Of a stretch of DNA of 41,142 nt, positions 32,517 to 33,335 are shown one piece after another (position 1 is the stretch's first letter; every line of letters starts with the position of its first letter). The DNA is from a virus (taxonomy: Duplodnaviria; Heunggongvirae; Uroviricota; Caudoviricetes): positions 1 to 41,142 of IMG/VR virus record IMGVR_UViG_2718218402_000007; one strand, given 5' to 3'. The notes beneath the pieces are model-generated. The model was given only the letters and a program-made list of their open reading frames with translations. It had not been told where the DNA came from and ran no database searches. A program made the translations under genes and the position numbers.

Positions 32517-33335
32517 TCACCCCCTGAATCCTGCCGGGATCTGGCTGTAATCCACGTTGTCGTAACTGGCTTTGAAGTACGGGTCTTCGCGTCTGGCTGG
32601 AGATACCGCAGGAACTTCCCAGGATTCTTCGAAATGACGATCCGGACCAAAGAACGTGACAGCCTGTTTCACAAATTGTGTACCGCTGTTACCCATCGCA
32701 GAAACCCAGCCCGCGTAGCGTTCCACACCTTCCAGCATGGTTTCGTGGTTTACCCCCTCGTTCAAACGGGCTTTCCAGGCTTTGAAGGCTGCTGATTTTG
32801 AATTTCCACCAGCACGTTTGGGATATGCCAGCCATGCCCGCTCAAATTCCGGAGAGTATTCCGGTCGGTTTGAACGAACTCGCACCGACTTATCAGCAGA
32901 TGCACCAACAGTTATTGGTTCATTGACTGGTTCTTTGACTGATTCAAAAGAGTGACTGGTTCTGGGTGAATCTCCTTCACTACCCACAGGTGCAACTCCT
33001 GCACTACCTGGTGAATTTGCTGCACCAGATAGTGAATTATTTGCACTACCCCCTGGTGAATCTCCTGCACCATCCAGATGAAGGAAATAGATATTACTTG
33101 AGTTACCTTTTTCACCTTTTCGGGTGACTTTTTTTACCAGCCCGGACTCACAAAGGACCGCAATATGACTCATCACAGAACGTTTGCTAATCTCGCACTG
33201 GTCAGCGATATGCTGATAGCTGGGCCAGCATTCGCCCTGATCGCTGGCATTATCAGCCAGCTTAATCAGAACCAGTTTTCGCAATGGATTACCCACTCGA
33301 ATTTTCATCGCTTTAACCATCAGCTCCATACTCAT
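32517..33335 (-). CDS. Replication initiation protein (lambda O-like: HTH N-domain, low-complexity linker, C-terminal domain)
   Basis: N-terminal HTH replication-organiser-like domain; the linker (GDSPGGSANNSLSGAANSPGSAGVAPVGSEGDSP) is encoded by tandem DNA iterons, as for ori-lambda inside O. Confidence 0.65.
   Translation of the reverse strand: MSMELMVKAMKIRVGNPLRKLVLIKLADNASDQGECWPSYQHIADQCEISKRSVMSHIAVLCESGLVKKVTRKGEKGNSSNIYFLHLDGAGDSPGGSANNSLSGAANSPGSAGVAPVGSEGDSPRTSHSFESVKEPVNEPITVGASADKSVRVRSNRPEYSPEFERAWLAYPKRAGGNSKSAAFKAWKARLNEGVNHETMLEGVERYAGWVSAMGNSGTQFVKQAVTFFGPDRHFEESWEVPAVSPARREDPYFKASYDNVDYSQIPAGFRG
32964..33075. repeat. Candidate replication origin: five ~22-bp iterons with adjacent AT-rich tract
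   Basis: Repeats starting near 32966, 32988, 33010, 33031 and 33055 with consensus close to GGTGAATCTCCTGCACTACC, followed by an AT-rich stretch at 33080-33130. Confidence 0.6.

Follow-up and report, generated by a model that had tools for sequence, protein, structure and literature searches.

The stretch of DNA analysed here, referred to as the window (41,142 bp), carries on its minus strand a replication initiator gene of 272 aa (32517–33335), identified from the open reading frame list, Pfam and PHROG matches and nucleotide identity. Its product matched Pfam HTH_36 at 44.2 bits, against a gathering cut-off of 25, and PHROG 270 ('replication initiation protein') at 2.4e-87 over aa 3–271. 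The Pfam scan at E≤0.01 also listed DnaD_N and B-block_TFIIIC with matches below their cut-offs, and PF04492 (Phage_rep_O) was absent from it. The preliminary description of the locus had spoken of an 'O-like' replication gene; this wording had to be given up for a minus-strand gene matching HTH_36 and PHROG 270 instead of PF04492, and the product is, as judged from these matches, a functional analogue of lambda O only. The gene belongs to the same family as SfV orf39, ST64B sb42 and the HTH protein of the Stx-phage type 'Eru6'. Its nucleotide identity to the genes of SfV, mEp460, cdtI and Stx2a_WGPS2 was ~96%, the last of these, the 'Eru6' reference phage, being 95.6% identical.

The N-terminal domain (aa 1–88, 33072–33335 on the minus strand) has the predicted fold of a winged helix, with the recognition helix at aa 51–64 and the wing at aa 67–85. 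Its AlphaFold2 model (pLDDT 82.4) comprised helices 17–28, 40–47 and 51–64 and a beta-hairpin at 67–85, and Foldseek matched the model to winged-helix folds including DnaD-N (2v79) and staphylococcal RepA (4pql/4pt7). We presume from this model that the domain is the origin-binding module. The conserved core of the C-terminal domain (aa 156–250, 32586–32870, minus strand), delimited by PHROG matches and the family alignment, is the presumed replisome-recruiting module. A domain search of the C-terminal half, as the preliminary description had suggested, was productive in PHROG (26426, 1701, 3729 and 9327) and gave no PDB sequence match and no NCBIfam match. The AlphaFold2 model of this domain was poor (pLDDT 55.6), and Foldseek against the PDB returned nothing below E=4 with it.

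Five direct repeats (32965–33073), spaced 24/21/21/24 bp, lie at the junction between the winged helix and the C-domain core. Their consensus on the coding strand is T(A/G)GTGCAGGAGATTCAC(C/T)(A/C), and pattern matching placed in each unit a 15-bp core with 5-N5-5 dyad symmetry. In gene order, the cores are GTGAATCTCCTGCAC (33056–33070), GTGAATTATTTGCAC (33032–33046), GTGAATTTGCTGCAC (33011–33025), GTGCAACTCCTGCAC (32990–33004) and GTGAATCTCCTTCAC (32966–32980), the end of the fifth lying 5 nt ahead of the first copy of a second repeat described below. Because of the start-to-start spacing all five units are in frame, and the array occupies codons 89–123 of 272, encoding the peptide DGAGDSP-GGSANNSL-SGAANSP-GSAGVAP-VGSEGDSP. 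The core pattern GTGMA-N5-TKCAC had five exact matches, all within 105 bp (32966–33070), and zero further ones across the window. With one mismatch allowed, 12 matches were obtained against 6.6 expected from shuffles, and the seven extra were scattered singles. Tandem Repeats Finder reported the array at 32965–33070 (period 24, 4.7 copies, score 65); at a score of at least 40, the window contained only this array and an adjacent 12-nt repeat (32916–32946). The five mid-gene repeats of the linker-coding part, which had been noticed before, were thus recovered both as a tandem array and as exact cores.

As all five units of the window are in frame, the decision between a DNA-level and a peptide-level repeat rests on the relatives, for which we compared about 150 distinct homologous arrays (149 in the counts). 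The array was present in every homologue examined, always separating the N-terminal winged helix from a variable C-domain. Counted from a conserved downstream element, the units start at fixed positions (−19, −43, −64/−65, −85/−88 and −109), and the sequence of the units depends on the lineage. Four to six units were recognisable in 135 of the 149 arrays; the last spacing was 24 bp in all but three, in which one unit only was recognised, and unit positions were identical in 75/80 close relatives. The 5-N5-5 dyad symmetry lets the units match either strand. Copy number varies, with 8 units in cdtI and 7 at locus L109 against the 5 of the window, and the additional units extend the protein in frame. 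The preliminary description had considered that homologues might keep the amino-acid repeat and lose the nucleotide repeat. We observed the opposite: in 70/149 arrays at least one unit is read in a different frame, giving an unrelated peptide (e.g. GVVQEIHQG, GVCHEIA), with the DNA unit retained. Such frame-shifted units recur in independent genomes and are therefore unlikely to be sequencing or annotation artefacts.

The recognition-helix motif (residues 50–56) and the class of half-site partition exactly, shared ancestry being a confounder. Helices of the type [KRE][RK][ST][VA] go with half-sites GTG..CAC, S[KR][ST]AV[RK] (SKASAR in phage S1249) with TGCC..GGCA, [SG]RS[TS]VK with GGGCA..TG[CA]CC, and DRSTVR with GTAGGC. 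At the level of sequence comparison, the fixed unit positions, the frame-shifted units and this tracking of half-site by helix show that the repeat is a feature of the DNA rather than of the peptide.

Immediately after the last iteron, the gene contains a second set of direct repeats, GAACCAGTCA in three to four copies (32912–32962, minus strand). The GAAYCAGTCA copies lie at 32953–32962, 32936–32945 and 32924–32933, with a degenerate fourth at 32912–32921. We refer to this stretch as the universal element: it was found in 80/80 species-level loci that had been ascertained by N-domain peptides only. Codon identity was 100% over 12 codons, compared with ~35–50% in the N-domain, among nine lineages found by protein similarity only, and third-position information was 1.72 bits against 0.55 in the N-domain, with no relaxation. 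From Pseudomonas to Pasteurellaceae, its synonymous sites are the same, and the motif is kept almost letter for letter in phages of many gammaproteobacterial genera. Moreover, it is read in two frames, the first copy as R-T-S-H and the later ones as E-P-V, so that selection on the peptide is insufficient to account for it. These sequence data show conservation of the element at the nucleotide level. Rfam gave only a chance-level miRNA match, on the palindromic repeats, and an RNA explanation was rejected. The number of motif copies ranges from 2 to 4, with an extra 12-nt copy in PhiR63_1. In the gene sense, this side of the array has ~40% GC, and its stability falls only some 1 SD below the mean of the gene; we know of no resemblance between the element and the AT-rich region of lambda.

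Our guess is that the universal element is a candidate site of strand opening or of helicase entry. The GAACCAGTCA repeats may be an undescribed universal origin-core element, a proposal we make tentatively. Within that reading, a conserved surface on initiators of this family, or a replication factor shared by gammaproteobacterial hosts, could recognise the repeats in duplex or single-stranded form, and the repeats could mark the opening or helicase-loading site independently of the lineage-specific iterons. Such an origin would combine an exchangeable array that confers specificity with an invariant start element that is not AT-rich and extends across two frames of the initiator gene.

The other flank of the array carries an AT-rich tract of 30–37% GC (33078–33130), whose codons specify the wing of the N-terminal domain. 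Within it falls the 30-mer of lowest stability in the initiator gene (−31.9 kcal/mol; gene mean −40.7, SD 2.8), and an antisense terminator-like hairpin lies at 33112–33127. The tract following the repeats that had been described at first thus exists, but in gene orientation it is located on the N-terminal, promoter-proximal side. The proposed ori-lambda layout is supported as to the iterons inside the initiator gene; the AT-rich tract lies on the side opposite to that of ori-lambda and is not conserved as AT-rich in the family.

Downstream of the initiator gene, 32035–32520 (minus strand) encodes a YfdN/PerC-like protein of 161 aa matching Pfam PerC and PHROG 1324 'transcriptional activator'. 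This gene takes the slot occupied in relatives by a helicase loader or helicase gene; it was present there in 79/80 close relatives and a DnaC-like gene in 0/80. The earlier statement that no DnaC/P-like loader gene follows proved correct. No lambda-P-type loader lies immediately downstream. The early regions of the window yielded no gene for a helicase, loader or primase, and none is annotated in SfV, a viable relative whose genome is complete; host DnaB and DnaC are therefore presumably used. The family is modular in the manner of lambda O: its members have the N-domain, iterons and universal element in common and differ in their C-domains, and the next gene may be lambda-P-like, DnaB-like, primase-helicase, DnaC-like or none of these. 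Outside the SfV group, the same N+C architecture was followed by a DnaC-like gene in 5/5 loci (AsXd-1, Phytobacter, Kosakonia, Rahnella). A link between this C-domain and DnaC-type loaders was considered and is weakened by DUF1376/YdaU-fused versions of the C-domain that precede a primase-helicase or lambda-P-like gene; with such neighbours, the partner of the C-domain is not deducible from it.

In lambda O, the N-terminal part binds DNA and the C-terminal part recruits the loader, and the region flanking the last iteron is common to lambda, phi80 and 82 despite their differing iteron specificity. The lambda origin, iterons with an adjacent AT-rich tract, lies within gene O, and the Stx phages 933W and P27 have six-iteron origins in which the protein is longer by the amino acids that the additional iterons encode (PMC7466680). 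The locus of the window resembles these origins in its position mid-gene, between a DNA-binding N-part and a recruiting C-part, in having several dyad-symmetric iterons phased by about two helical turns, extra copies of which lengthen the protein, and in a last-iteron flank common to phages of different iteron specificity. It differs from ori-lambda in that the initiator lacks sequence-level homology to O (HTH_36, PHROG 270), the five iterons have another sequence, the flank is the GAACCAGTCA direct repeat of ~40% GC instead of an AT-rich tract, and no P gene follows the initiator gene.

Nearer relatives are Min27 and SI5, where a primase-helicase gene comes next, RothD and S1249 (lambda-P-like), BUCT708 (DnaB-like) and AsXd-1 (DnaC-like and DnaB-like). 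Their N-terminal winged helices are 47–66% identical to that of the window, and they share the position and geometry of the array and the universal element; they differ in their half-sites (GGGCA/TGCCC, TGCCA/TGGCA and others) and, except for AsXd-1, in their C-domains. Initiator-binding repeats inside the initiator gene are also found in oriL of Bacillus phage SPP1, within gene 38 (G38P), and in rep genes of other Gram-positive phages. The SPP1-type initiator has a winged-helix N-domain and works with a dedicated loader, G39P, and helicase, G40P. Our locus can be likened to oriL for the repeats inside the initiator's own gene and for the winged-helix N-domain; it differs in protein family, in host phylum and in the dedicated loader and helicase of SPP1. 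Iteron plasmids (F RepE, RK2 TrfA, pPS10 RepA) likewise have helix-phased initiator sites, and 13-mers at the unwinding site that Rep can contact. In plasmids, the iterons lie outside the rep gene and are asymmetric direct repeats to which monomers bind, and DnaA boxes are typical of these origins, whereas the units of the window are dyad-symmetric, lie inside the initiator gene and have no DnaA box with them.

Very probably, the array is the origin from which an SfV-type lambdoid prophage starts its vegetative replication, placed where the prophage's initiator gene codes for the linker. This central point of the preliminary description is supported by the nucleotide repeat and geometry kept across frames and by the tracking of half-site by helix. 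The following scheme of initiator binding, origin activity, helicase recruitment and the part played by the universal element is inferred from sequence comparison. Derepression would lead to rightward early transcription and to expression of the 272-aa initiator. Winged-helix dimers of the N-domain would then bind the five dyad-symmetric 15-bp cores, which lie on one face of the DNA because they are spaced by about two helical turns, and form an O-some-like complex. The universal repeats (32912–32962), common to the family whatever the iteron specificity, would be the likeliest site of strand opening or helicase entry. Finally, the exchangeable C-domain would bring the replicative helicase, which would be host DnaB together with host DnaC, since the phage encodes neither loader nor helicase. 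IHF-type consensus and GATC sites were not seen by eye in 32900–33130, and no internal promoter was found in the initiator gene. The searchable literature yielded no description of this origin, though an earlier mention is possible, and no binding or replication assay for the family.

It is extremely improbable that the repeats are only a Gly/Ser/Pro/Ala low-complexity linker, expanded by slippage at the protein level and devoid of DNA-binding significance. The units of the window, in frame and reading as a G-S-A-G-D-S-P-like heptad or octad, would agree with such an expansion, as would the in-frame insertions by which unit number changes in cdtI and L109. However, the out-of-frame units of the 70 arrays combine unrelated peptides with conserved DNA, dyad symmetry and a spacing fixed within 1–3 bp persist despite peptides as unrelated as GAGDSP, PMPPDGT, GVGPEST and SENFAL, and the DNA-recognition helix tracks the unit sequence. 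An array bound by the initiator could otherwise be regulatory, serving autorepression, titration/handcuffing or a transcriptional roadblock, with the initiation site elsewhere in the prophage. Dyad-symmetric sites are often operators in plasmid systems, and in the window the lambda-equivalent side of the array has no strongly AT-rich region. Similarly, no DnaA box (TTWTNCACA) occurs in 32300–33700, the single match of the window, at 34659, being below chance expectation. We still regard a regulatory array as very unlikely: the 41-kb window has no further repeat array, and this one is buried in the coding region, 265 bp away from the start codon, with no promoter-like site nearby. In addition, it adjoins a universally conserved element of non-coding type and is positioned between DNA-binding and recruiting domains as in lambda, where iterons and AT-rich tract constitute the origin (PMC7466680).

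With the array taken as origin, its unwinding element could be the tract at 33078–33130, promoter-proximal to the iterons, an arrangement that would mirror the one in lambda. Both the gene's least stable 30-mer and a shallow minimum of the family average (−37.2 at position −130) fall there, but shallow minima occur on both flanks of the array and the profile does not settle the choice between them. We consider this placement unlikely, given that the AT-richness is not conserved (Min27, L095, L102, L104 and BUCT708 at −37 to −44), that synonymous sites are as free as in the rest of the N-domain, and that the Lys/Asn/Ile/Tyr codons of the wing account for the composition. The other flank could in turn owe its conservation to something outside the origin mechanism: CCAGAACCAGTCACTCTTTTGAACCAGTCAA might be a recombination joint homogenised by exchange of N- and C-modules, or reflect an mRNA or peptide constraint. 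The element does sit where module exchange must take place, similarity between lineages stops ~33 nt past its start, exactly at the divergence of the C-domains, and reassortment between lineages affects both the C-domains and the helicase or loader genes downstream. Nevertheless, the GAAYCAGTCA copies are conserved, the spacer between them varies (CTCTTTT, CTCTTCT, CTCTCTT, CTCTTTA) and deletions of 3–6 nt are tolerated; repeated recognition elements therefore fit better than a homogenised block. The variable copy number, the lack of an Rfam family match and the use of the motif in two frames also speak against a joint, an mRNA constraint or a peptide constraint, and we hold a cause outside the origin mechanism to be rather unlikely.

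The initiator gene, whole or in part, was found in 2788/5426 complete E. coli genomes. It is also carried by serotype-converting Shigella phages, ST64B-like Salmonella phages and several Stx-converting phages, and the NCBI pipeline labels its product only as 'helix-turn-helix domain-containing protein'. According to PMC8951638, nothing is known of the replication proteins of the 'Eru' Stx phages or of the way in which such non-lambda replication modules function; the gene of the window is of type Eru6. A placed origin would be a target for studying the induction-dependent amplification of toxin genes and would be useful for building compatible phage-derived replicons, and the iteron class could allow prediction of replication specificity and of incompatibility between co-resident prophages. 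The ~150 arrays of one geometry, with differing half-sites and matching helices, offer a natural experiment for decoding winged-helix specificity. Circular records of 38–48 kb that carry the initiator gene and no typed plasmid replicon also exist, and these are possibly just excised phage DNA.

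The repeats lie within a minus-strand ORF of 272 aa (32517-33335 in the ORF list), and the array is very probably where the initiator binds in the phage origin. The window is an E. coli prophage of SfV-like, lambdoid type. The chromosome of strain MLI104K1 matches its initiator gene at 100% identity; nucleotide identity is about 96% with SfV orf39, mEp460, cdtI and many Stx-converting phages, Stx2a_WGPS2 among them, and protein identity with ST64B sb42 is 86%. In gene sense, the cI-like repressor (35280-35954, plus strand) is followed by a CII-like gene, an Ash-family gene, a 78-aa ORF and then the initiator, past which come PerC/YfdN-like, LexA-DNA-binding-domain, RusA, KilA-N and DUF968 genes. 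Antiterminator Q, integrase genes and host flank were also identified. The prophage-host junction is near 39.7-39.9 kb, marked by the integrase gene (38521-39684) and then an aldehyde-dehydrogenase-family gene (39889-41142, minus strand) extending past the window end.

The repeat array noticed in the preliminary description was recovered by Tandem Repeats Finder (32965-33070, period 24, 4.7 copies); together with an adjoining 12-nt repeat, it is the only tandem array scoring at least 40 in the whole 41 kb. The dyad-symmetric core GTGMA-N5-TKCAC has five exact matches, all within 32966-33070 and none elsewhere in the window, where sites with one mismatch occur singly, dispersed and about as often as expected by chance. 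Units are spaced by 24/21/21/24 bp, hence all five are in frame, encoding DGAGDSP/GGSANNSL/SGAANSP/GSAGVAP/VGSEGDSP.

Relatives were picked by tblastn against phage genomes without reference to the repeats. This gave 305 records, many sharing the N-terminal half alone or the C-terminal half alone. We compared nine distinct lineages whose N-domains share 47-66% identity with the query (named AsXd-1, Vibrio D67 and D173, Min27, SI5, RothD, BUCT708 and S1249 among them). All nine carry 2-5 repeats at exactly the same place, directly past the wing of the DNA-binding domain. Repeat sequences and encoded peptides differ between lineages and each unit is again a 5-N5-5 dyad, as in Min27 (GGGCA-GGAGC-TGCCC), Vibrio D67 (GTGAC-N5-GTCAC) and RothD (TGCCA-N5-TGGCA). 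Directly past the last iteron, all lineages have CCAGAACCAGTCACTCTTTTGAACCAGTCAAnGAACC (window 32912-32962, minus strand), the universal element. An IMG/VR pattern scan with this element yielded 120 loci and 84 distinct arrays, and a one-genome-per-species scan with N-domain peptide patterns only yielded 80 loci, in genera including Pseudomonas, Enterobacter, Xenorhabdus, Shewanella, Aeromonas, Marinomonas, Aliivibrio, Avibacterium and Microbulbifer.

Over 149 distinct arrays, unit starts are fixed relative to the universal element, at -19, -43, -64/-65, -85/-88 and -109, with 24-21-21(-24) and 24-22-23(-23) as common spacing patterns. The last spacing is 24 bp in all but three arrays, in which just one unit was recognised, and five units occupy identical positions in 75 of 80 close relatives. 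Array expansions are in frame and lengthen the protein (eight units in cdtI, seven at the homologous locus L109), as iteron expansion likewise does in six-iteron Stx phage origins (PMC7466680). At related loci (L093-L293), the last spacing is 24 rather than 21 bp owing to bases lying about 20-26 nt before the universal element (window 32981-32989). These bases read AGGGGGT, with a G5 run, in one set of lineages and exactly the reverse complement, ACCCCCT, in another, as though this spacer could sit in either orientation. Most members of the initiator family in databases are 'partial' proteins, located where contigs end. It seems that assemblies break within or beside the gene, perhaps owing to several prophages per genome having the module in common; an E. 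coli genome can have it in as many as 5 places.

Where arrays follow the 24-22-23 pattern, the -65 unit is out of frame with its neighbours and encodes unrelated peptide (GVVQEIHQG, GVCHEIA) while the DNA unit is kept. At least one such unit is present in 70 of the 149 arrays, and it is therefore the nucleotide repeat with its helical phasing that is conserved, not the amino-acid repeat. The alternative raised in the preliminary description, a repeat conserved as peptide and not as nucleotides, is the opposite of what we found.

The universal element is likewise maintained as DNA. At amino-acid-identical pairs, the same codon was used in 100% of cases over its 12 codons, against about 35-50% across the N-domain, in the nine lineages found through protein similarity alone. 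Third codon positions carry 1.72 bits in the element (positions 1 and 2: 1.74) versus 0.55 in the N-domain. Of the 80 species-level loci, which were ascertained solely via the N-domain, 70 agree with the element at 23 or more of 31 positions and the other 10 have it with small indels. Its conserved parts are direct copies of GAAYCAGTCA, three plus a degenerate fourth in the window and two to four in other lineages, with an additional 12-nt copy in PhiR63_1. The first copy is read (A)GA-ACC-AGT-CA (R-T-S-H) and later ones GAA-CCA-GTC (E-P-V); the word is thus kept in two reading frames, and conservation is lower in the spacer separating the copies. Similarity between lineages ends about 33 nt into the element, at the C-domain divergence. 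The element did not match the DnaA-box consensus, Rfam families or promoter consensus. Within the window, the sole consensus DnaA box (TTATCCACA, 34659-34667, plus strand) is part of the CII-like gene and precedes the iterons by 1.6 kb in gene sense; one box is fewer than chance would give (1 vs 4.0).

Pfam search of the initiator gave HTH_36 at aa 17-67 (44 bits) and a DnaD_N match below threshold, with the lambda O family PF04492 unmatched; in PHROGs it belongs to family 270, 'replication initiation protein'. The 'O-like' designation holds for the layout, which works like ori-lambda, and not for the protein family. Since the N- and C-terminal halves match different PHROGs, the initiator is a two-module protein; beyond that PHROG match, the C-domain had none in PDB or NCBIfam, nor by fold. 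The AlphaFold2 model of aa 1-95 is a confident winged helix (pLDDT 82.4; recognition helix aa 51-64, wing aa 67-85), for which Foldseek retrieved winged-helix proteins, among them the DnaD N-domain and RepA of staphylococcal plasmids. When 89 sequences were grouped by half-sites of the last unit, recognition-helix motifs partitioned cleanly: [KRE][RK][ST][VA] with GTG..CAC, S[KR][ST]AV[RK] plus a three-residue-longer wing with TGCC..GGCA (phage S1249, in this class, has SKASAR and a wing of standard length), [SG]RS[TS]VK with GGGCA..TG[CA]CC, and DRSTVR with GTAGGC..GCCTAC. The variable residues map to the first half of the modelled helix. This partition, confounded by shared ancestry, is supportive of the N-domain binding the repeats. 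The half-site centres of a 5-N5-5 dyad are 10 bp apart, as would be expected for contact by a winged-helix dimer on one DNA face.

The AT-rich tract of the preliminary description is real (33078-33130, 30-37% GC) and contains the least stable 30-mer of the gene. It was placed after the repeats; as the gene is on the minus strand, it precedes them in gene sense, where it encodes the wing. The equivalent segment is not AT-rich in Min27, BUCT708 and the homologous loci L095, L102 and L104, and its synonymous sites are free. For these two reasons we favour the universally conserved flank as the putative functional partner of the iterons. Family-average helical stability has two shallow minima flanking the stable array, at about -130 (wing-coding side) and +20 to +30 (universal element), both about -37.3 kcal/mol per 30-mer versus a gene mean near -40.7. 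We tentatively propose the universal repeats as an opening or loading site. Within the AT-rich tract, a terminator-like hairpin with a trailing T run (TCACCTTTTCGGGTGA CTTTTTTT, 33112-33127, plus strand) lies antisense to the initiator gene; such sites number two in 1.4 kb versus 1.2 expected, and it may be there by chance.

As previously described, no DnaC/P-like loader lies downstream: we found no helicase, loader or primase in the early regions of the window, nor is any annotated in the complete genome of SfV, a viable phage, and the gene next to the initiator is PerC/YfdN-like in 79 of 80 close relatives. Other relatives join the same N-domain to a different C-domain and have a lambda-P-like, DnaB-like or primase-helicase gene next, which by analogy can be read as lambda logic, an origin-specific N-half with a partner-specific C-half. 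The C-domain type of the window precedes a DnaC-like and then a DnaB-like gene in Aeromonas phage AsXd-1, and a DnaC-like gene in Phytobacter, Kosakonia and Rahnella prophages, which suggests that host DnaC-DnaB is used where a phage copy is absent. The same C-domain is also fused to DUF1376/YdaU N-domains, followed by a primase-helicase or P-like gene. It is a free-standing, shuffled module of prophage replication modules and, as its partner genes vary, the partner is not deducible from context. On P. aeruginosa and Rahnella plasmids (L294 and L295), aa 160-250 recur with 50-52% identity on DUF1376/YdaU-type N-domains.

The iteron-origin interpretation is thus supported, with strand and orientation, protein family and conserved flank corrected. 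An origin inside an O-like gene is what a specialist would expect; new, and open to test, are the fixed geometry of about 150 arrays, units that do not depend on reading frame, and the universal element with its two frames. The locus resembles ori-lambda in the placing of the iterons midway through the initiator gene, in the modular build of the initiator, and in having copy-number variants whose protein is longer (PMC7466680). Unlike lambda, its initiator is outside the O protein family and comes with no phage loader, and an invariant direct-repeat element replaces a clear AT-rich tract on the equivalent side. In the Stx-phage literature, according to which nothing is known of Eru phage replication proteins, this gene type is the HTH protein of 'Eru6' (PMC8951638). 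We found no description of these iterons or of the universal element in searchable literature.

A 44.6-kb circular E. coli 'plasmid' (NZ_CP148393.1) consists of an entire lambdoid phage genome: it has integrase, tail and lysis genes as well as this initiator gene, and lacks a typed plasmid replicon. Ten records of comparable circles (28-48 kb) come from Salmonella, Klebsiella, Shewanella, Microbulbifer and Arsenophonus nasoniae. In the early operon, a 119-aa protein (31709-32068, minus strand) consists of a LexA DNA-binding domain alone (3.7e-19), without the S24 peptidase domain, and could be an uncleavable LexA mimic. Finally, two overlapping ORFs between late-gene activator Q and a DNA methylase gene (27587-28522 and 28462-29124, plus strand), without Pfam match, resemble the PADLOC candidate defence pair PDC-M53A (1e-17) and PDC-M53B (3e-39), and are probably a prophage-borne anti-phage 'moron'.
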